Positions 8,578-60,045 of a stretch of DNA of 64,000 bases are shown one piece after another (positions within the stretch are counted from its first letter, which is position 1; each line of letters opens with the position of its first letter). The DNA comes from Nostoc sp. (lineage in GTDB: Bacteria; Cyanobacteriota; Cyanobacteriia; Cyanobacteriales; Nostocaceae): positions 7,779 to 71,778 of the forward strand of contig NZ_JBALBZ010000027.1 of NCBI RefSeq assembly GCF_036919495.1, given 5' to 3'. The position numbers were made by a program, and so were the translations under genes. The notes beneath the pieces are model-generated. The model was not told where the DNA came from. It saw only the letters and a program-made list of their open reading frames with translations, and searched no databases.

Positions 8578-9834
8578 TTAAGTCTTGACGTGAACTGGAA
8601 AAACACCCAAGGCAATCAACCTACCTGGAAGGTCACGCAAGATGGGTAAGCGCAAAAACGCAGGTGGTACAAAGGTGCGATTTGAGATGAGAACTGGGGC
8701 AAATACCCGCTTTTGGATAAAAGTTTGAAACGCCTGAATGATCCGTGTGGGCAACTCGCGTTGACGCTGTACTTTTGCTAGCTCGCTAAGTTGTACTTGT
8801 CCGTTCTTGAGCGGTTTGCTGAGTACATTCGCCGCGACTACAGCATCTTGAATCGCGTAGTTAATGCCAACTCCACCAACGGGGGACATTATATGGGCAG
8901 CATCACCAATGAGTAACAAACCTGGACGATACCAGCGTTTGACGCGGCTGGACTCCACTGAAAGAAAAGCTATTTGTGACCAATCATGTAAATTTTGGAT
9001 GCGTTGCTGGAATTCTGGCACTACTTCCACAACAGATTTTTTTAATTCCTCCAAACCCGCAGCCCGCAGTTGATGATAGCCTCCTTTAGAAATAACATAG
9101 GCAACTTGCCACTCATCACCACGGTCAAGCATGGCAATGATTTTACCTTGACCAAAGCGCCCCATCCCCCCTTCAGCGTCTTCTGGCTGACGCGGTAGGC
9201 GGAACCAGAGTACATCCATTGGTGGCGAGGTTTCGATTGACTCAAACTCACCCAGGTGACGTAAACGTGAGTGGCGACCGTCTGCGCCAACTGTCACTAT
9301 TGCCCGGATTTCATGCCAACCACCGCCTCCCCGATAGCGGACACCTTGAATTACGCCATTTTCCGTAATTAATTCCTGTACATTCGCACCCATTACCAGA
9401 TGGAAATTAGGATATTTTTGTGCTTCTTGGGTGATGAACTCCAGGAATTTTACCTGGGGAAGCATCGTAATATAGGGGTAATGGGTTTTCAGATGACTAA
9501 AATCTGCCAATGTGACAGTATCTTGAGGAGTTTTAAACCTAATTTGGCGCATTTTGGTATGGGGGAGTTTTAGCAAGTGATCGCTAAGTCCCAATTCTTC
9601 CATAATTTCCATTACCGACGGATGAATCGTATCGCCGCGAAAGTCCCGATCGAAGTCTTTGTGTGCTTCCAGCAGCATCACAGAAATGCCTTGACGTGCT
9701 AACAACAGCGCCAATACTGCTCCTGCTGGGCCTCCACCCACAATGCAACAATCTGTAGTTTGTCCGTCTACAATGTCATGGACAGGGTTAATGCTTGGGT
9801 CTTGGGAAAGATTTTTAGGTACATCGGTAGTCAT
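8578..9834 (-). CDS. FAD-dependent monooxygenase/oxidoreductase
   Basis: GGGPAGA dinucleotide-binding motif and LLIGDAAHIMSPVGGVGINYAIQDA motif. Confidence 0.85.
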   Translation of the reverse strand: MTTDVPKNLSQDPSINPVHDIVDGQTTDCCIVGGGPAGAVLALLLARQGISVMLLEAHKDFDRDFRGDTIHPSVMEIMEELGLSDHLLKLPHTKMRQIRFKTPQDTVTLADFSHLKTHYPYITMLPQVKFLEFITQEAQKYPNFHLVMGANVQELITENGVIQGVRYRGGGGWHEIRAIVTVGADGRHSRLRHLGEFESIETSPPMDVLWFRLPRQPEDAEGGMGRFGQGKIIAMLDRGDEWQVAYVISKGGYHQLRAAGLEELKKSVVEVVPEFQQRIQNLHDWSQIAFLSVESSRVKRWYRPGLLLIGDAAHIMSPVGGVGINYAIQDAVVAANVLSKPLKNGQVQLSELAKVQRQRELPTRIIQAFQTFIQKRVFAPVLISNRTFVPPAFLRLPILRDLPGRLIALGVFPVHVKT

Positions 9835-10103
9835 AACAACACCTCCTGATAGCCCTAAAATTCAGCATAGTTTGCTTTTGATGTTGCAAGCTGTTTTTTT
9901 TACTTTTCGTATTTACATAGATGTTATTAACCCTTCATACCAAGTGAAGGTGGAACCGATCCTGGATATCTACGCCTAGACAAATCTTGTCCATTCCAAG
10001 GGTATAAGGCACAAACTTCTTCCCTGTTGTAAACCAATACCTCTTCAAGCTCCTCATAAGTCCATTTACTATAATGAACAATTTTTTCAAGGAGAAACTC
10101 GAT

Positions 10104-10532
10104 TTAACGTCCAGCAAAAGCATCTTCCAGTATGCGTTCTATACCCGTTTCAGCAAATGCTGCTAAAAAAATAATTGCTTTAAGATTACGTAGAACTATA
10201 GCTTCATAAGTAACAACTTTTATAAAATCCCGAAGACTAATGGTTTTTGCTACAGAAGAACCTCTGGCAGATTTACCTTCAAATTGCCTGATAACCCTAA
10301 GCTCAACTTGTGCGCCTGTAAAACCTGTATTCTGTAAACTTTTCAGCCATTTTGACTGTCTTTTTGTGCGGTTGTAAAACCAACGATCTGTATACCCAAG
10401 AGCAATACCTGTTCCTTCAATACCAAGACGCTTTTCATTACTAGGCAACATGTAAACGTCTAAGAAAGAATTGCCAAGAGGGATATCACAAGCAACCGCT
10501 TTAATAACATCAAACTCAGAAACATCACTCAT
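10104..10532 (-). CDS. hypothetical protein, possibly a truncated P63C-like (phage-related) protein
   Basis: 142-aa ORF. The C-terminal AAFAETGIERILEDAF loosely resembles the start of P63C domains and then stops. Weak call made by eye. Confidence 0.35.
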   Translation of the reverse strand: MSDVSEFDVIKAVACDIPLGNSFLDVYMLPSNEKRLGIEGTGIALGYTDRWFYNRTKRQSKWLKSLQNTGFTGAQVELRVIRQFEGKSARGSSVAKTISLRDFIKVVTYEAIVLRNLKAIIFLAAFAETGIERILEDAFAGR

Positions 10533-52941: not shown

Positions 52942-53388
52942 CTATCTTAGCCGTTCTTCTTGAATTAAGGTGCGTTGAAAGATTTGGTTGTTCTTAAACC
53001 AATGCCAAGTTCGGGCACGATTGTTATTGTCAGGGCTAATGTAGATCATTTCATACAAACTCATCTCTGGGTTTGTTTTATAAGTAAACTGCAAAATCAC
53101 AAGTGAATCATCGGCTTCCCAGGCTTTTCCATCTATGCGATCGGTGTCAAACCAAAGTTTATTATCTTTATAGCTTCCGGGAAATTCATACTCCTCTTGT
53201 TTACCATCAGACCATTTATAGCGATTGATTTGGTAGTAGGGATGAGGGCCATTTTCGGGAAATTGACAAGTTAAGTGAGACTCATACTTATCGAGGATTT
53301 TTCCGGCGGTATCAACTACTGTATAAGTTCCTACCCAATCTCCTTCATGACGGACAAGTACGGGCATTCCTTCTCGAATATTTGACAT
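52942..53388 (-). CDS. DUF3598-like protein
   Basis: 148 aa; HEGDWVGTYTVVD...YESHLTCQFPENGP pattern. Confidence 0.5.
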   Translation of the reverse strand: MSNIREGMPVLVRHEGDWVGTYTVVDTAGKILDKYESHLTCQFPENGPHPYYQINRYKWSDGKQEEYEFPGSYKDNKLWFDTDRIDGKAWEADDSLVILQFTYKTNPEMSLYEMIYISPDNNNRARTWHWFKNNQIFQRTLIQEERLR

Positions 53389-53671: not shown

Positions 53672-53959
53672 TTTAAATCTCTGTGCAGGTAGTCAGCTAC
53701 AACTTAATTATGTTCGCATATTATGAGTGGGGAGTGGGGAAGGTTGTCAAAGACGGCTTTAATCATCGCTGGCATAACTTGACGCGATGCATAACGAATT
53801 CCGTTTTTCTTCCAAGCGATGCCTGCGGCGGGCTACGCCTACGCGTTTCTTGTCGGCTTCTAATGTTTTTCTGTATCCACACCAATATCTTTTGTCACTC
53901 CCACCGACTGCGATCGCCATTGGTTACGCTAATGAGTTGCATAGTGATGATGGCATTGG

Positions 53960-55378
53960 TCACTCCCCAGTCTCAAACCACCAAGGGTCATTAGTAGCGT
54001 TAGTTTTAATCAAAATAGCTTTTTTTCGCATGAACCGTTTCAGCGCGGCTGCACCCATGCGTGACCCTCCCATACCGGAGAATTTGAAGGAATTTTTCTC
54101 TCCCTCCTGCATGATGGCGGTGAGTCCAGCATCGTTGATACTAATACCACCTGCATCTATCTGTTGGGCAACTTCTAAGGCTTCGGCTTCTGAGGCAAAG
54201 ACAGCAGCACTCAATCCATAAATTGAGTCATTCGCTAAAGACACTGCTTCCTCTACTGTGGAAAAAGGCATTATTGGCATAATGGGGCCAAAAGTCTCTT
54301 CGGTCATCACTTTCATGGAGTGATTAACCTGGGTGAGAACTGTCGGACGACACCACCAACCCCCACCTAAGTCTTCAATTACACCGCCGCAGTGAATTAC
54401 TGCTCCCTTTTCTACTGCATCTAAAAGATGGTTGCTAATAATTGCTGCTTGGCTTTCGGTGATGATGGGGCCAATTTCTCCACTTTCGACTGTGGGGTAG
54501 GCTAGCCCAAGGCGATGGGCCTTAGCTACTAGTTGATGGTAAAATTTTTCAAATATCGATTCAGCAACATAAATCCGCTCGATTGATAAGCACGACTGTC
54601 CGGTGTTTACGACGGAACCCCACAATATTGCTGAGGTTGCTAATTCTAAATTGGCTGATTCTAAAACGATCGCAGGGTCTTTTCCGCCTAATTCCAAAAA
54701 AGCCGGAATAAACCGTTTAGCAGCCGCTTCTGCTACTTTTCGCCCCGTTGCTACGCTGCCTGTAAAGCATACCAAATCTACATTTTCAATCAAAGCAGAT
54801 CCAGTTTCGCCTGCTCCTTCAACAAAAGTTAATACGTCGCGCAATTCAGGAACGGCGCTGATTGCTGTTTTCAGTGGTGCTACGAAGCGGGGAGCAATTT
54901 CACTGGGTTTAACAATGACAGCACAACCCGCCAGTAATGCCGGAATGGTATCAATGGCTGACAGTAACAGTGGAAAATTCCACGGGCTAATTACCCCAAC
55001 TAGGGGATAAGGAACGGATGTTTGTTGCAAAGCGATAAATGGAATTGCTGTATTTTTGGCAGAGTCTTGCAGCAATTCCGGCGCTAACTTACACCAGCGA
55101 TCGATGCTAGAGAGGAAAGAGTCTATTTCCATTACTGAGGTCGAAAATCTTCCTGTATCATTTACCAAAGCTTCTGTGAGGCGATCGCGCCCTGATAATA
55201 TCGCTTTTTTCCACTGCTGTAAGGCTTCAATTCTCCCCTCTAAGCCCAGTTGCTGCCAGCTAACTTGCGCCCTGCGGGTGCGCTTACATTGCTGTGCCAG
55301 CAGCCTGGGAGGCGGCGGGATAATTACGTAGTCGAATTTGCCAGTTCGGGGATTGCGGACTTCTATTGTTTTTGTCAT
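53960..55378 (-). CDS. NAD(P)-dependent aldehyde dehydrogenase
   Basis: FLELGGKDP (catalytic Glu) and NTGQSCLSIERIYV (catalytic Cys). 472 aa. Confidence 0.9.
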   Translation of the reverse strand: MTKTIEVRNPRTGKFDYVIIPPPPRLLAQQCKRTRRAQVSWQQLGLEGRIEALQQWKKAILSGRDRLTEALVNDTGRFSTSVMEIDSFLSSIDRWCKLAPELLQDSAKNTAIPFIALQQTSVPYPLVGVISPWNFPLLLSAIDTIPALLAGCAVIVKPSEIAPRFVAPLKTAISAVPELRDVLTFVEGAGETGSALIENVDLVCFTGSVATGRKVAEAAAKRFIPAFLELGGKDPAIVLESANLELATSAILWGSVVNTGQSCLSIERIYVAESIFEKFYHQLVAKAHRLGLAYPTVESGEIGPIITESQAAIISNHLLDAVEKGAVIHCGGVIEDLGGGWWCRPTVLTQVNHSMKVMTEETFGPIMPIMPFSTVEEAVSLANDSIYGLSAAVFASEAEALEVAQQIDAGGISINDAGLTAIMQEGEKNSFKFSGMGGSRMGAAALKRFMRKKAILIKTNATNDPWWFETGE

Positions 55379-55470
55379 TGGTCATTTGTCATTTGTCATT
55401 TGTCAATAATTAATAGTTATTCTTCCCTTGCTCCCTCTACTCCCCATTCCCCATTCTCCATTCCCCAATT
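55374..55470. repeat. heptamer arrays (GTCATTT, CCCCATT) between the CN-hydrolase and aldehyde dehydrogenase genes
   Basis: gtcattggtcatttgtcatttgtcatttgtcaa (contains the ALDH start codon) and tccccattccccattctccattcccc. Confidence 0.9.
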
Positions 55471-56513
55471 CAAATAATTCCTAGTTTGGCTAACCGTTCA
55501 ATGGTGGCTTGCTGCGTTTGGAGGAAGTGTTTGCGGTCTACTTCTCCTTCCAGCATAGTATTAGCTGGGTAAAAGTGTGATTGGCGATAACTTTCGGCGT
55601 ATAGTTCAAATCGTTGGCGGGCAAGTAAATTATTTAACCCCGGTCGGCGGCGGTCGCGGCGTAATGCTCCTAAATCAATCTCTGCAAATGCTGCCATGCT
55701 CTCACCTGCACCTGTCTCTGCTAATACTATTCCACGATGGTCAATGATTTTAGAGCCACCATCAGCCGAAGCAATGGGGATAGCAATATTAGCGATGCCT
55801 GCGGTATTGGCTGAAACCACGTAAGCCATATTTTCGACGGCGCGAGTGATTTTTGCCGCGTCTTTGGGTGTGAGGTTTTTGTTATATACTTCCGAGGTGG
55901 AATGGACAAAAATCTCCGCTCCTCGCATCGCCAAACACCGCGCCACTTCTGGATACAAAATTTCTTCTGATGCTAAAGCCGCCAAATTACCGATCGCTGT
56001 TTTGGCTACGGGAAAAACTCCTTCTAAACCATAGCAGTCAAGATATTTATCCCAAACATCATGGGGTGTGGGAGCAAATAAAGAATTTAGCCGCCGATAT
56101 CGCAAAACAATTGAGCCAGAGGGGTCAAGAATAAAGCAGGTTTGGAAGTACAATCCAGGGAAGTTGGGGTCAACTTCGTAGGCGTTACCAGCTAAAAAGA
56201 TTTTATGCTTTTGGGCAATTTTACCAAGTGCTTCATACTCAGCACCAGCCATTTCTATACAAGCTTTTTCTGCCCATCCTAAGAGAGAATCTCCCATTGG
56301 GAAACCAGTGAGGAAATATTCTGGCAGTACAATTAAACGACAATCGAAGCCGATGAAAGCGATACTGGCAGCAATTTGTTGCCCTAGACGGTTGATGGAG
56401 TTTTGCATGAGCGATCTTGCTTGGAGGCGATCGCTTGTTTGGTTGACTGCATGACAAGTAACTTGCAGCGCCAAGGCCCGAAAGGAGTTTAGATGATCGG
56501 TATTATCTGCCAT
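55470..56513 (-). CDS. carbon-nitrogen hydrolase superfamily protein, aliphatic-amidase-like, with a non-canonical triad
   Basis: Aligns by eye with AmiE: LIVLPEYFLTG (Glu kept), IVLRYRRL (Arg where AmiE has Lys), AALASEEILYPEVARCLAMRGAEIFV (Ser where AmiE has Cys). Start taken at MADNTD. Confidence 0.75.
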   Translation of the reverse strand: MADNTDHLNSFRALALQVTCHAVNQTSDRLQARSLMQNSINRLGQQIAASIAFIGFDCRLIVLPEYFLTGFPMGDSLLGWAEKACIEMAGAEYEALGKIAQKHKIFLAGNAYEVDPNFPGLYFQTCFILDPSGSIVLRYRRLNSLFAPTPHDVWDKYLDCYGLEGVFPVAKTAIGNLAALASEEILYPEVARCLAMRGAEIFVHSTSEVYNKNLTPKDAAKITRAVENMAYVVSANTAGIANIAIPIASADGGSKIIDHRGIVLAETGAGESMAAFAEIDLGALRRDRRRPGLNNLLARQRFELYAESYRQSHFYPANTMLEGEVDRKHFLQTQQATIERLAKLGII

Positions 56514-56695
56514 GCGGTGTCCAAATTTTCTTACTACCTTATATAAAAGCAAAAAACCAGCATCTAGCTTATGTCAGAATTATTCTTAAATCTTCCACTG
56601 AGCTAGAACAACTGTAAATGGCGTGGAATTATTGTTTGCTTTTCCTGTCTTTGGATAAACTTAATTTAAATAAATAACTCTAGGTAGAAGAGAGA

Positions 56696-57625
56696 ATGTC
56701 AAATTTCCCCGATCGCACAGAGTCAAACACTGGTAAAGTTTTACTCATCGGAGTTACTGGCGGCACAGGTGGAAATGTCGTTAAGGGATTTCTCGAACAG
56801 AAAGTTACCAACCTGCGAGTTATCACTAGAGAAATTGACCTTAATCGTCCAACTCTTGCAAAACTCAACAATGCCGGAGTTGAACTGGTAAAAGCCAACC
56901 TCGACGATGAAATCTCCCTCATAGATGCCTTTACAGGAATTTCTGCTGTTTACTGCCATGCTACTTCTGCGGACTCCGCTAAAATTGACCCGCTAGAGGT
57001 GGAGAGAGCAAGGCGAGTTGCACAAGTAGCTAAACAGGCTGACATTAAGCACTTTGTCTACAATGGAGCAGGTGGGGCTGATAGGAATTCAGGAATCCCC
57101 CGCATAGAGCAAAAGTATCAAGTAGAGAAAATTCTCAAAGAAGCTGGCTTACCGACTACCATGTTACGAGCCTGCTTGTTTATGGAGGAGTTTTGGAAGA
57201 AGTACACGCGACCTTCCATCCTCAAAGGTAGTTTCCCATTTTCCATTCAACCAAACAAGCCCCTTCATTTAATTACAACGAAGGACATGGGGCGCGTTGC
57301 TGCTTACGTAATTAAACATCCCACCAAGTATATTGGTCAAGAAATTGAGCTAGCTGGCGATGTGCTGACTCCTCTTGAGATGGCAGAGGCATTCTCCCAA
57401 GCGCAGGGGATGAAAGTTGTCTACAAAGAGACACCCGCCTGGATTTTCTTACTCTTGCTGCAAAAGGAACTGTTCGATTTGATTCAGTGGTATCGCAAGC
57501 AAGGTTATCAAGCCGATGTCTGGCGTTTACGAGAAGAGGAGTTTCCTGGAATTCTCACCACATTTAGGGAATTTTTGGCAGAAACCAACTGGGCAAATAC
57601 GGAACTCACCTACGAGAGTCTGTAA
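56696..57625 (+). CDS. NmrA-family NAD(P)-binding protein
   Basis: Rossmann motif LLIGVTGGTGGNV. 309 aa. Confidence 0.8.
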   Translation: MSNFPDRTESNTGKVLLIGVTGGTGGNVVKGFLEQKVTNLRVITREIDLNRPTLAKLNNAGVELVKANLDDEISLIDAFTGISAVYCHATSADSAKIDPLEVERARRVAQVAKQADIKHFVYNGAGGADRNSGIPRIEQKYQVEKILKEAGLPTTMLRACLFMEEFWKKYTRPSILKGSFPFSIQPNKPLHLITTKDMGRVAAYVIKHPTKYIGQEIELAGDVLTPLEMAEAFSQAQGMKVVYKETPAWIFLLLLQKELFDLIQWYRKQGYQADVWRLREEEFPGILTTFREFLAETNWANTELTYESL

Positions 57626-57882
57626 TCGGAAGTACACTGTGGCAAAAATTGGCGGTTATGGAGTTTTGCATGAGCGATCGTAATGACACTTTATTCAGTC
57701 TATGATTTCTCATTTAGATGCCTTTGCCCTTAGTCTAAATTAAGTAATAATACTGCAACTTCATAGAAAATAGATTTTATTATACTTAATTATGAATATA
57801 AAAATAATTTTCTGGGTAAATATAGACAAATCAGAGTAAAAACAAATACTAATAAGTTAGTTCTTTTGTTATTAGTATACCT

Positions 57883-58383
57883 ATGGCTTTTGATTTAGAT
57901 AAAACTTTTCAACTAGACATAGCTCAAATGAATTTAAAAAAAGTACATACAGTAATATTTAGTTTACATAAACCAAAAATTCCTTTTGTAATTTCGTTAC
58001 TAGAGAACCCTAATAGTCCATTGGCCTTACCCGGAAAAATTAGTCTGCGCCATCATGATTATATTCACATACTTTTAGGTAGAGGTATTTCTCCTCAAGA
58101 TGAAGATTTTGTAATTGGATTTACAATGGGTAATGACTTAAAGAGTAATCAACTACATTTATTCATCTATAAACTTTTTGCTAAATTTATATATCTATAT
58201 TCTGATAAATTCTCGTCATTAGATTTAATAACTTTTAATTTTGGCTTTATATACGGCAGAAATATTAAATTTAAACAACTAAATGAGATTAACTTTGAAA
58301 TTTATCAAGATGAACCTATAGGAAATTTAAAAAATATTTTCGGGATTAATCATAAGAATATAAAACTTATAGAAAAGTATTAA
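57883..58383 (+). CDS. hypothetical protein with a Coq4-like HDxxH-x11-E motif
   Basis: HHDYIHILLGRGISPQDEDFVIGF fits HDxxH(x11)E. Very AT-rich gene. The family assignment is tentative. Confidence 0.4.
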   Translation: MAFDLDKTFQLDIAQMNLKKVHTVIFSLHKPKIPFVISLLENPNSPLALPGKISLRHHDYIHILLGRGISPQDEDFVIGFTMGNDLKSNQLHLFIYKLFAKFIYLYSDKFSSLDLITFNFGFIYGRNIKFKQLNEINFEIYQDEPIGNLKNIFGINHKNIKLIEKY

Positions 58384-58428
58384 ATTTTATTAATACTCAA
58401 TGACCATATATCTAAAAAAATTATCAAA

Positions 58429-60045
58429 ATGCACTTTTACCTTTCTAATAAACTGAGATTCGTTCCCTCTCAAATAGTAACTATAACGTTACTACTAACA
58501 TTAATCTTGTTTATTCCTCAAATCTGCCTCAACTGGCAAGCATATTCTAACTTTAATAGTATTACTAAATATGAATTCAAACTCCAAATGTTGAGTGATG
58601 AAATTACTTATCTTGATGAAGTATTAACGATGTCAGCACGCATGAATGCTGCTACAGGAAAATTTATTTGGGAAGAACGGTATCGCCAATTTGAACCTAA
58701 ACTTGATCTTGCTATTAAAGAATTTATTAAATTGGCTCCTAAAGTGGATGAGAATGAGGATGCTCAAAAAATTGATGCTGCTAATCAACGCTTAGTAGAA
58801 ATGGAATATCAATCTTTTGTATTGGTTAAAAAAAATCAAAAAGAGATAGCACAAATATTACTTTCTAACCATGAGTATGAAAGTCAAAAACAAATTTATG
58901 CTGATGGTATTGCTAAAAGGAAGCGTAATATCTCACTTCAGTTACAGCAAAAAGTTGATGATTATTACAAAAGAATGTTTTGGGCAATTTTAGAATCTAT
59001 TATAAGTTTAGCAATGCTGATTCCGGCATGGCTTTTAGTATTGCACTTATTACAGCAATACTTAAAAGCTAAAAAAATTGCTCAAGCCGCCTTAGAAGAA
59101 ACGAATTATCGGTTAGAAATGCAAGTTGCAGAGAGAACGGCAAAACTAAAAGAAAAAAATAATCAATTAAAACAGACACTGGAAGAATTGCAACACGCTC
59201 AAGTACAGCTTATCCAAACTGAAAAAATGTCCTCATTAGGTCAGCTAGTTGCTGGTGTTGCTCATGAAATTAATAATCCAGTTAATTTCATTTATGGTAA
59301 CCTGATGCATGTTAGAGAATATAGTCAGGATTTACTAAGTTTAATTAACCTGTATCAGCAACAAAAACTTAATTACAATTCAGAACTAAATAGTTTGATT
59401 GATGAGATAGATTTAGAGTTTATTATTGACGATCTGCCGAAGATATTATCCTCAATGGCAGTTGGTACTGACCGCATTCGTGAGATTGTGCTAACTTTGC
59501 GGAACTTCTCGCGTCTTGATGAAGCAGAAATGAAACCTGTTGATATTCATGAAGGGATTGATAGCACTCTATTAATTTTACAGTATCGTATCAAAGGAAA
59601 GCATAAACAGCAGGAAATTTCAATAATCAAAGATTATGGTGATTTGCCCCTTGTTGAATGTTATGCAGGAGGACTGAATCAGGTATTTATGAATATTTTA
59701 AGTAACGCTATTGATGCTTTATATGAATGGGAAGAAGAGTGTTTAAGTTTAAAAGGAGAGACTAAAAAAATTCTTAGCTCTATTATTATCCATACTCAAG
59801 TTAAGAATGAAGAGTGCGTGCTTATTAGTATTAAAGATAATGGGCCAGGAATACCAGAGGAAGTTAAGAATAAATTATTTGATCCTTTCTTTACTACTAA
59901 ACCTATAGGTAAAGGCACTGGCTTAGGATTATCTATTAGTTACCAGATTATAGTAGATAAGCACAAGGGAAAAATCGAGTGTATTTCTTCACCTGGTAAG
60001 GGTACAGAGTTTTTGATTGAGATTCCAATTAAGCAGATGCGGTAA
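58429..60045 (+). CDS. membrane sensor histidine kinase
   Basis: Two TM segments, a coiled coil, H-box VAHEINNPV, N-box MNILSNAIDA, G1 DNGPGI, G2 GTGLGL. Confidence 0.85.
   Translation: MHFYLSNKLRFVPSQIVTITLLLTLILFIPQICLNWQAYSNFNSITKYEFKLQMLSDEITYLDEVLTMSARMNAATGKFIWEERYRQFEPKLDLAIKEFIKLAPKVDENEDAQKIDAANQRLVEMEYQSFVLVKKNQKEIAQILLSNHEYESQKQIYADGIAKRKRNISLQLQQKVDDYYKRMFWAILESIISLAMLIPAWLLVLHLLQQYLKAKKIAQAALEETNYRLEMQVAERTAKLKEKNNQLKQTLEELQHAQVQLIQTEKMSSLGQLVAGVAHEINNPVNFIYGNLMHVREYSQDLLSLINLYQQQKLNYNSELNSLIDEIDLEFIIDDLPKILSSMAVGTDRIREIVLTLRNFSRLDEAEMKPVDIHEGIDSTLLILQYRIKGKHKQQEISIIKDYGDLPLVECYAGGLNQVFMNILSNAIDALYEWEEECLSLKGETKKILSSIIIHTQVKNEECVLISIKDNGPGIPEEVKNKLFDPFFTTKPIGKGTGLGLSISYQIIVDKHKGKIECISSPGKGTEFLIEIPIKQMR

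Follow-up and report, generated by a model that had tools for sequence, protein, structure and literature searches.

The DNA analysed here is a 64,000-nucleotide stretch of a Nostoc sp. genome (assembly GCF_036919495.1, contig NZ_JBALBZ010000027.1, positions 7,779 to 71,778), which we call the window. Its minus strand encodes a carbon–nitrogen hydrolase of the nitrilase superfamily, a group taught as thiol enzymes with a Glu-Lys-Cys or Glu-Lys-Glu-Cys site. Judged by alignment, the catalytic positions of this hydrolase are Glu65, Arg141 (at the lysine site), Asp152 (at the second glutamate site) and Ser182 (at the cysteine site). The protein is a strongly conserved member of an uncharacterised AmiE/AmiF-like subfamily, and its site was rebuilt from Glu-Lys-(Asp)-Cys to Glu65-Arg141-Asp152-Ser182. 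There is in our view an even chance that it is an active enzyme, which would cleave C–N bonds without a thiol in a catabolic pathway shared with the aldehyde dehydrogenase encoded next to it. The gene and the codons concerned are as follows.

55470..56513, minus strand: carbon–nitrogen hydrolase, 347 amino acids (frame open to the TTG at 56552); from PF00795, homologue lengths and the AlphaFold2 model
56319..56321, minus strand: codon of Glu65 (LPEYF), the retained catalytic glutamate; from alignments, and invariant in 99 of 99 sequences of the clade
56091..56093, minus strand: codon CGG of Arg141 (RYRRL), catalytic-lysine position; from alignments
56058..56060, minus strand: codon GAT of Asp152 (PHDVW), probable second-glutamate position; from profile alignment to AmiE and AmiF
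55968..55970, minus strand: codon TCA of Ser182 (ALASEE), nucleophilic-cysteine position; from alignments
55962..55964, minus strand: codon of Glu184, two residues beyond the nucleophile, covarying with Arg141; from covariation among aligned rows

The gene and its family

The open reading frame (ORF) listing of the window gives a frame from a TTG at 56552 to 55470, corresponding to 360 amino acids. The first ATG, at 56513, gives a hydrolase of 347 amino acids and is the likely start, because most of the 120 homologues listed have this length, and they cover 97–100% of the protein.

Both the Pfam family model (PF00795, CN_hydrolase: E 2e-31, with 109.7 bits where the cut-off is 23.2) and the four-layer α-β-β-α fold place the protein in the nitrilase superfamily. 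It reaches no curated NCBIfam family; the top matches are aliphatic amidase (NF009802, scoring 57.3 bits where the cut-off is 427) and formamidase (NF009803, 55.8 bits where it is 406), and these scores are so far under the cut-offs that an AmiE or AmiF orthologue is ruled out. N-carbamoylputrescine amidase AguB, which would imply a role in arginine and polyamine metabolism, is likewise ruled out (TIGR03381, 52.6 bits against 410.25). We note that in the Trueperaceae locus described below an agmatine deiminase-type gene (PAD_porph, PF04371) lies just beyond the dehydrogenase, where it adjoins a separate, canonical CN_hydrolase gene and not the Glu-Arg-Asp-Ser hydrolase. Matches in the ESM Atlas are to unnamed “nitrilase-related” clusters only.

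Catalytic positions

Solved structures were aligned with a profile built from 72 family sequences (alignment A1). The profile matches AmiE (2uxy) with an E value of 7.9e-43, and pairs the segments PEff with PEYS (glutamate), kYrkl with KYRKI (lysine) and liCed with IICDD (cysteine). Glu65 aligns with Glu59 of AmiE, so the catalytic glutamate, the general base of the family, is present. Arg141 aligns with Lys134 of AmiE and Ser182, encoded by TCA, occupies the cysteine position; neither the catalytic lysine nor the nucleophilic cysteine is therefore found. HMMER pairwise alignments agree, placing Ser182 on the nucleophilic cysteine and Arg141 on the catalytic lysine of NitFhit (1ems), and Ser182 on residue 166 of AmiF (2e2k).

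Two alignments set Asp152 opposite Glu142 of AmiE and Glu141 of AmiF; the one made to AmiF from B. cereus has gaps in this region. In the A1 profile, PhD is matched to PID of the E142D mutant of AmiE (4lf0). We infer that Asp152 is probably the counterpart of the second glutamate of the tetrad. Aspartate at this position characterises the subfamily as a whole, with at least 90% conservation across the 72 sequences of A1. As a control, the profile was applied to paralogues of the same genome: it recovers Glu69-Lys140-Cys183 in the paralogue on C3 and Lys378-Cys429 in that on C148, while the paralogue on C85 aligned at the glutamate only.

The first-pass annotation, made from the sequence of the window, had described an intact AmiE-like gene at 55470..56552 with Glu-Arg-Ser in place of Glu-Lys-Cys. 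AmiE and AmiF are indeed the nearest solved relatives, by profile and by fold, and the frame is intact, with its likely start moved to the ATG at 56513. The glutamate in IVLPEYF aligns to that of AmiE in both profile and pairwise alignments, and the serine codon lies at 55970-55968 as it had claimed. The reading of lysine as arginine holds for the residue, while the codon, given as 56094-56092, is one base off and is in fact 56093-56091. A profile alignment had been suggested as the check on all this, and proper alignments place neither a cysteine nor a lysine at the catalytic sites.

Predicted structure

The AlphaFold2 model of the hydrolase is of high confidence (pLDDT 95.4, pTM 0.94). Ser182 is modelled as the first residue of the helix directly after strand 175-181, which places it at the strand-to-helix turn occupied by the family nucleophile. 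Glu65 is at the end of strand 58-65, and Arg141 follows directly on strand 135-140. A Foldseek search with the model returned AmiE, Nit2, AmiF, D-carbamoylase and others, each with a probability of 1.00 and with 17–23% identity.

Conservation and selection

The 120 close homologues listed, from Nostocales and other cyanobacteria and 81–97% identical, all carry Glu-Arg-Asp-Ser. We then sampled 301 cyanobacterial genomes, of which 21 have a match to the hydrolase, including 17 of the 35 from the window's own family. Nineteen of the matches span the full length; the other two retain only the C-terminal 114 residues (234-347, in L044, genome G164) and 56 residues (292-347, in L045, genome G041). 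The aldehyde dehydrogenase gene is whole in both, and these two loci represent a recent loss of the hydrolase alone.

A wider scan of species-representative genomes used P0121, the nearest non-cyanobacterial relative (54% identical), and found 502 relatives; the residue and neighbourhood counts refer to the best 80 of these 502 loci. All 80, at 47–97% identity, carry Glu-Arg-Asp-Ser followed by “SEE”. They comprise 55 loci assigned to Gammaproteobacteria, 10 from Alphaproteobacteria, one from Trueperaceae and 14 from cyanobacteria. Among 99 sequences of the clade, 58 of the 347 positions are invariant, including Glu65, Arg141, Asp152, Ser182 and Glu184, together with the flanking motifs LPE, RYRR, PHDVW, AS.E and PE..R.

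The codons vary beneath these fixed residues. In 18 cyanobacterial loci the serine is encoded by TCA (14), TCC (2), TCT (1) or TCG (1), and the nineteenth (L043) has its serine within an ASDE motif; the arginine codon in the 19 loci is CGG (12), CGC (4), CGA (2) or AGG (1). The ratio of nonsynonymous to synonymous substitution rates (dN/dS) against the window gene is 0.042–0.108 in 17 comparisons, the eighteenth being saturated at synonymous sites. The hydrolase is under strong purifying selection. It had been suggested that a survey of orthologues might reveal this copy to be a decaying allele; this was not borne out, because serine and arginine are universal in the homologues and loci surveyed, the codons vary synonymously and dN/dS is low.

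How the site arose

When 1.84 billion cluster representatives were searched, 2547 matched at E ≤0.001, and the 150 listed were examined. The site types among these 150 are Glu-Lys-Asp-Cys, Glu-Lys-Ser-Cys, Glu-Arg-Asp-Cys, Glu-Arg-Asp-Ser and nucleophile-less forms such as EKDA, QKDA and QKDG. The Glu-Lys-Ser-Cys forms occur in two-domain proteins of 520–745 residues, the other domain of which is degenerate. In P0123, P0131, P0140-P0142, P0146, P0147 and others one CN_hydrolase domain has Glu-Lys-(Ser/Asp)-Cys, and the second has Gly, Asn or Val at the cysteine position and a variable residue at the glutamate position. Both in these degenerate domains and in the EKDA, QKDA and QKDG rows the site residues are scattered and variable.

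A tree of 73 rows was calculated with IQ-TREE (quick search only, SH-aLRT support). It contains the query, eight close homologues and, from the 65 single-domain representatives of 325–375 residues, all but P0196 and P0215, whose match is gapped or partial at the site; these 63 are joined by the C3 paralogue of the same genome as outgroup. Lys/Cys forms are basal, and 41 of the 42 rows outside the arginine clade carry lysine. All arginine-bearing rows fall in one clade of 30 rows (support 95), of which 12 have cysteine, 17 serine and one alanine. The query lies in a 14-row serine clade (support 98) whose sister, P0132, carries cysteine, and the remaining three serine rows group with the alanine row. 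Cysteine therefore gave way to serine on two occasions, or on one that was followed by a reversal; a single base separates TCN from TGY codons.

The residue two positions after the nucleophile changes with the lysine: it is aspartate in 27 of 29 Lys/Cys rows and glutamate in 28 of 29 arginine rows. This pairing of Lys with Asp and of Arg with Glu suggests an ion pair that has been maintained. The order of replacement is thus Lys to Arg, with Asp to Glu at nucleophile+2, first, and Cys to Ser later. Such an ordered and compensated change, followed by strict invariance, differs from what is seen in the degenerate domains and is what one would expect if the site still works. Metagenomes were also scanned: P0138 gave nine loci, all too short to be read except L129 and L128, and a scan with P0148 found no relative.

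The cyanobacterial neighbourhood

Downstream of the hydrolase on the same strand lie a 91-bp spacer, the aldehyde dehydrogenase, a DUF3598_N protein and histidyl-tRNA synthetase (HisRS), and an NmrA-family gene diverges upstream, its start only 183 bp (56514-56695) from the hydrolase ATG.

55379..55469, no strand: 91-bp hydrolase–dehydrogenase spacer, largely tandem heptamers; from sequence inspection
53960..55378, minus strand: aldehyde dehydrogenase, 472 amino acids, the conserved downstream partner; PF00171, E 2.3e-103
52942..53388, minus strand: DUF3598_N β-barrel protein, 148 amino acids; PF12204, E 1.6e-08
56696..57625, plus strand: NmrA-family NAD(P)-binding protein, divergent; PF05368, E 5.3e-40

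In the first set of 19 cyanobacterial loci, hydrolase and dehydrogenase are adjacent in 17, DUF3598 is present in 16, a gene resembling RCC reductase (PF06405, E 8.6e-19) lies directly upstream in six, and NmrA is present in four. The 14 further cyanobacterial loci give similar counts: dehydrogenase 13, DUF3598 12, RCC-reductase-like gene seven, NmrA six. Ancestrally the genes seem to have been arranged as NmrA (divergent), RCC-reductase-like gene, hydrolase, aldehyde dehydrogenase, DUF3598 and HisRS; in the relatives L029-L032, L036 and L037 the RCC-reductase-like gene stands between NmrA and the hydrolase. That gene was not found in the window's genome by a search with a protein from the same genus, and a Pfam-family search there was also empty, although the control genomes gave none either, so that this search has no positive control. 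At a distance of a few genes, the cyanobacterial loci repeatedly contain alpha/beta hydrolase, SnoaL-like and zinc-dehydrogenase genes.

The first-pass annotation had placed an aldehyde dehydrogenase 91 bp away on the same strand and had taken it, with the NmrA protein, as a small pathway. Spacer and dehydrogenase are confirmed, and the dehydrogenase linkage is conserved in both cyanobacterial sets and in two other phyla. The part assigned to NmrA does not stand equally well, this gene being a frequent but not a constant neighbour.

The dehydrogenase has a solved orthologue, PDB 4h7n (E 1.7e-261), to which no function is assigned. The hydrolase orthologue in Nostoc sp. PCC 7120 is BAB76722.1, which from the accession numbering would be “all5023”, next to All5022. 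All5022 is listed only as a generic aldehyde dehydrogenase candidate (PMC2242806), with no assigned function.

The DUF3598 protein is modelled as a ten-stranded barrel (pLDDT 92.8). Its best fold match is BFA1 (5yvf, E 3.5e-7), and it also matches DUF3598 2o62, the bilin lyase CpeS (4tq2; E 3.5e-5, TMq 0.74) and Ycf58 (3bdr), which resembles fatty-acid-binding proteins. A common family of DUF3598 and DUF1838, a proteobacterial neighbour of the hydrolase, is ruled out (hhalign probability 0.7%). DUF1838 genes lie near the hydrolase in gamma- and alphaproteobacterial loci and in three cyanobacterial ones (L041, L116 and L123); the window's genome has two elsewhere, on contigs C55 and C212 (L126 and L127).

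Neighbourhoods outside Cyanobacteria

The dehydrogenase is also found near the hydrolase in two other phyla. In Trueperaceae (L119) a dehydrogenase 58% identical to that of the window lies 1.6 kb downstream of the hydrolase, the order being VOC-like protein, LysE, hydrolase, a Gp49/HTH pair, a 164-residue ORF and dehydrogenase; the Gp49-like and HTH genes (9162-10137) form a toxin–antitoxin-type pair. In a Sphingomonadales locus the dehydrogenase is 53% identical and 5 kb from the hydrolase, and genes for a methyltransferase and a VOC protein of two domains lie immediately upstream. VOC/extradiol-dioxygenase-type proteins stand beside the hydrolase in the alphaproteobacterial, Trueperaceae and Sphingomonadales loci, and in four of the 10 alphaproteobacterial loci a 343-residue VOC-family protein follows it. 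Two of the VOC-like clusters, c37 and c48, have no BLAST similarity to each other, and are grouped as one broad superfamily via weak Pfam matches only. TonB-dependent receptors occur in six of the 10 alphaproteobacterial loci and DUF1838 in four.

In gammaproteobacteria, the next gene in 39 of the 55 loci encodes the alpha subunit of an enzyme of the type II dimethyl sulfoxide (DMSO)-reductase family (TIGR03479, 872 bits, cut-off 984.75). The iron–sulfur beta subunit then follows in 30 loci (TIGR03478, 502 bits, above the cut-off), and five of the eight alpha-subunit N-termini inspected have a twin-arginine motif. TonB-dependent receptors are present in 15 of the 55 loci. Loci L046-L099 and L102 are from gammaproteobacterial metagenome-assembled genomes; in L088 the gap between hydrolase and alpha subunit is about 40 bp, and in loci of this kind a methyltransferase diverges upstream, while DUF1838 and a TonB receptor are close by. 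A hydrolase that has no signal is an odd companion for a periplasmic molybdoenzyme. Cluster c11 (344 residues, upstream in gammaproteobacterial loci) has no Pfam match and lies opposite the methyltransferase gene; we discarded it as probably a spurious antisense ORF in GC-rich DNA, and likewise cluster c14, which lies over the hydrolase itself.

The metagenomic locus L129, which encodes an Arg/Cys relative, has as neighbours an MFS transporter, an FAD_binding_2 oxidoreductase, a CpeT/CpcT-family protein, three hydrolases of the alpha/beta type, a zinc dehydrogenase and a SnoaL-like protein. Overall, the neighbourhoods look like a catabolic gene set with an oxidoreductase partner, and no one partner is common to all phyla.

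Spacers and RNA-library coverage

No terminator-like hairpin was found on the minus strand of the 91-bp spacer, which is compatible with co-transcription of hydrolase and dehydrogenase but falls short of proof. The tandem heptamers, which on the minus strand read TGACAAA/TGACCAA and GGGGAAT-type, occupy 55371-55405, 55440-55470 and approximately 53813-53845. They resemble the STRR repeats of heterocystous cyanobacteria, and they are dispersed repeats, because the RNA libraries reach depths in the thousands there, with many loose ends.

Contigs from RNA-seq libraries of related strains (90–99% alike) cover the hydrolase, for example X2 from 55479 to 56468 and X6 from 55442 to 56620; stretches that they leave uncovered carry no information. 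This is weak evidence for expression, as DNA carry-over is possible. The contigs break at the repeat-rich spacers and are therefore silent on co-transcription with the dehydrogenase. Contig X6 joins 56620 to 57419, omitting 798 bp of the NmrA gene, in keeping with the loci of some relatives, which lack NmrA. Beyond NmrA, a plus-strand ORF of 166 residues without a Pfam match (57883-58383) has a homologue at the same place in L027, from the same genus; it lies in a stretch of 28–29% GC (approximately 57500-59000), the hydrolase and dehydrogenase genes being 42–47% GC.

A working site or a binding protein

If the hydrolase is an enzyme, its general base would be Glu65, and the role of Arg141, kept in place by Glu184, would be to polarise the carbonyl or to bind a carboxylate. 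Ser182 could attack to give an ester acyl-enzyme; alternatively water might be added directly, as in an enamine/imine deaminase. Together with the adjacent aldehyde dehydrogenase, the hydrolase would break down a nitrogen-containing compound, probably an unsaturated one or one arising from ring cleavage. Without a thiol, the protein may be safe from alkylation by a thiol-reactive (Michael-acceptor) substrate. To judge from the titles of PDB entries 4gyl and 4izu, superfamily amidases have been solved with acrylamide attached to the active-site cysteine by Michael addition.

Several points weigh against this reading. Cys-to-Ser variants of other superfamily members are reported to be inactive. 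Partners differ between phyla, a twin-arginine-exported subunit of the DMSO-reductase family and not the dehydrogenase being next to the hydrolase in most of the gammaproteobacterial loci. Two cyanobacterial genomes retain the dehydrogenase with the hydrolase reduced to a fragment. The geometry proposed for Ser182, Glu65 and Arg141 is taken from modelled secondary structure and alignment, and invariant site residues would be equally expected of a specific ligand-binding protein. In Medicago CPA, the hydroxyl of the C158S variant kept binding while reactivity was strongly diminished (PMC4812014).

These points lead to the most serious alternative, a pseudoenzyme, which we regard as possible but the less likely outcome. 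Here the nitrilase fold would bind a small molecule without turnover, for example an acid or amide held by Arg141, and would serve as a sensor, a carrier, a scaffold or a partner of the neighbouring oxidoreductase. The two residues on which the thioester mechanism depends have been replaced, and the CPA variant just described is an example of a canonical member that still binds after the same substitution. The subfamily is moreover prone to losing its nucleophile, in the EKDA, QKDA and QKDG rows and in the degenerate second domains, and the partner of the hydrolase varies by phylum (aldehyde dehydrogenase, DMSO-reductase-family enzyme or VOC protein). Mere binding, however, gives no obvious role to Glu65 and Asp152, both of which are invariant in all 99 clade sequences. 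The replacement of lysine by arginine was matched by a compensating change from aspartate to glutamate and is older than the loss of cysteine, which 12 of the 30 clade rows retain, and a dN/dS of 0.04–0.11 is at the level of an enzyme. Of the two possibilities raised in the first-pass annotation, a pseudoenzyme or binding protein on the one hand and different chemistry on the other, the pattern of conservation and the stepwise evolution favour a working site.

A more specific form of the active-enzyme reading can also be considered, in which the cluster degrades tetrapyrroles whose ring has been opened: catabolites of bilins or chlorophyll, or the maleimide or unsaturated-amide fragments of these. 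The hydrolase would open or deamidate a lactam, imide or amide, and the dehydrogenase would oxidise a formyl group. We consider this doubtful. It is suggested by the RCC-reductase-like gene directly upstream of the hydrolase in six of 19 and seven of 14 cyanobacterial loci, by the fold similarity of the DUF3598 barrel to CpeS and Ycf58, by the CpeT/CpcT-family gene (PF06206, E 1.5e-11) two genes downstream in the metagenomic Arg/Cys locus, and by the TonB-dependent receptors of the proteobacterial loci. Yet the hydrolase is intact and conserved in the window's genome, where the searches (the family search without a positive control) found no RCC-reductase-like gene, and a bilin reductase occurs in none of the proteobacterial loci examined. 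The barrel fold is generic, because its best match is BFA1, an ATP-synthase assembly factor, and DUF3598 has no sequence link to the CpeT-like protein of L129 (profile probability 0.3%). In its fullest form, which is rather improbable, this widespread natural branch would have abandoned thiol catalysis in order to handle thiol-reactive unsaturated amides, imides or enamines that come from ring-cleaved pigments or aromatics, maleimide-type or bilin fragments for instance. Its Glu-Arg-Asp-Ser site would supply a serine nucleophile or permit direct hydration, and with the aldehyde dehydrogenase and the bilin-lyase-like barrel protein it would belong to a cyanobacterial route, long sought, for the disposal of opened tetrapyrroles.

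Finally, a decaying allele, or an alignment artefact hiding a canonical site, is most improbable: loss does occur, as the two C-terminal fragments testify, but the frame is intact, the orthologues all carry serine and arginine under low dN/dS, three independent alignments agree, and the profile that fails to find lysine and cysteine here recovers them in the genome's own paralogues.

Known relatives and significance

The nearest solved relatives are AmiE and AmiF (2uxy, 2plq, 2dyu and 5g3o). The family profile matches them with E values of 7.9e-43 to 1e-40 and Foldseek with E 7.6e-22 (TMq 0.68), and they share a length of approximately 340–350 residues with a C-terminal extension, the PEY glutamate motif and the spacing of the catalytic segments. 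They differ in being only 18–21% identical, with Lys134, Glu142 and Cys166 where the hydrolase has arginine, aspartate and serine. Closer in sequence are the “nitrilase-related carbon–nitrogen hydrolases” of 340–360 residues, with Glu-Lys-Asp-Cys or Glu-Arg-Asp-Cys sites, and their two-domain relatives of 600–745 residues (28–45% identity; PHD, PEVAR and GAE motifs). These retain the cysteine, and the basal ones the lysine also; the Arg/Cys forms are the immediate sister lineages of the hydrolase clade in the tree. Names given at source stop at “predicted amidohydrolase” or “hypothetical protein”. In NCBI CDD such groups presumably appear among the uncharacterised nitrilase subgroups of “class 13”.

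Engineered Cys-to-Ser nitrilase variants serve as dead controls. AmiF C166S (2e2k), CPA C158S (5h8k and 5h8l) and the Nesterenkonia amidase C145S (5nz5) have serine at the nucleophile in the same fold; unlike the hydrolase they are laboratory mutants that keep the lysine, with reduced reactivity (PMC4812014). The serine of the hydrolase is natural, ancient and fixed, and is accompanied by Arg141 and Glu184. The literature surveyed, partly in titles and abstract openings and with subscription journals and supplements outside its scope, yielded nothing relevant on natural Ser/Arg superfamily members, pseudoenzymes of this kind or the PCC 7120 locus tags.

The clade with invariant Glu-Arg-Asp-Ser occurs in at least four bacterial phyla, the groups sampled being Cyanobacteria, Gammaproteobacteria, Alphaproteobacteria and Trueperaceae. 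If active, it would represent a new catalytic solution in an old fold, and a natural template for engineering amidases that resist oxidation and alkylation. If inactive, it would be a clean and datable case of an enzyme turned binding protein. Either way, heterocyst-forming cyanobacteria possess a conserved, functionally unassigned pair of hydrolase and aldehyde dehydrogenase, which is genetically testable in the model strain PCC 7120.

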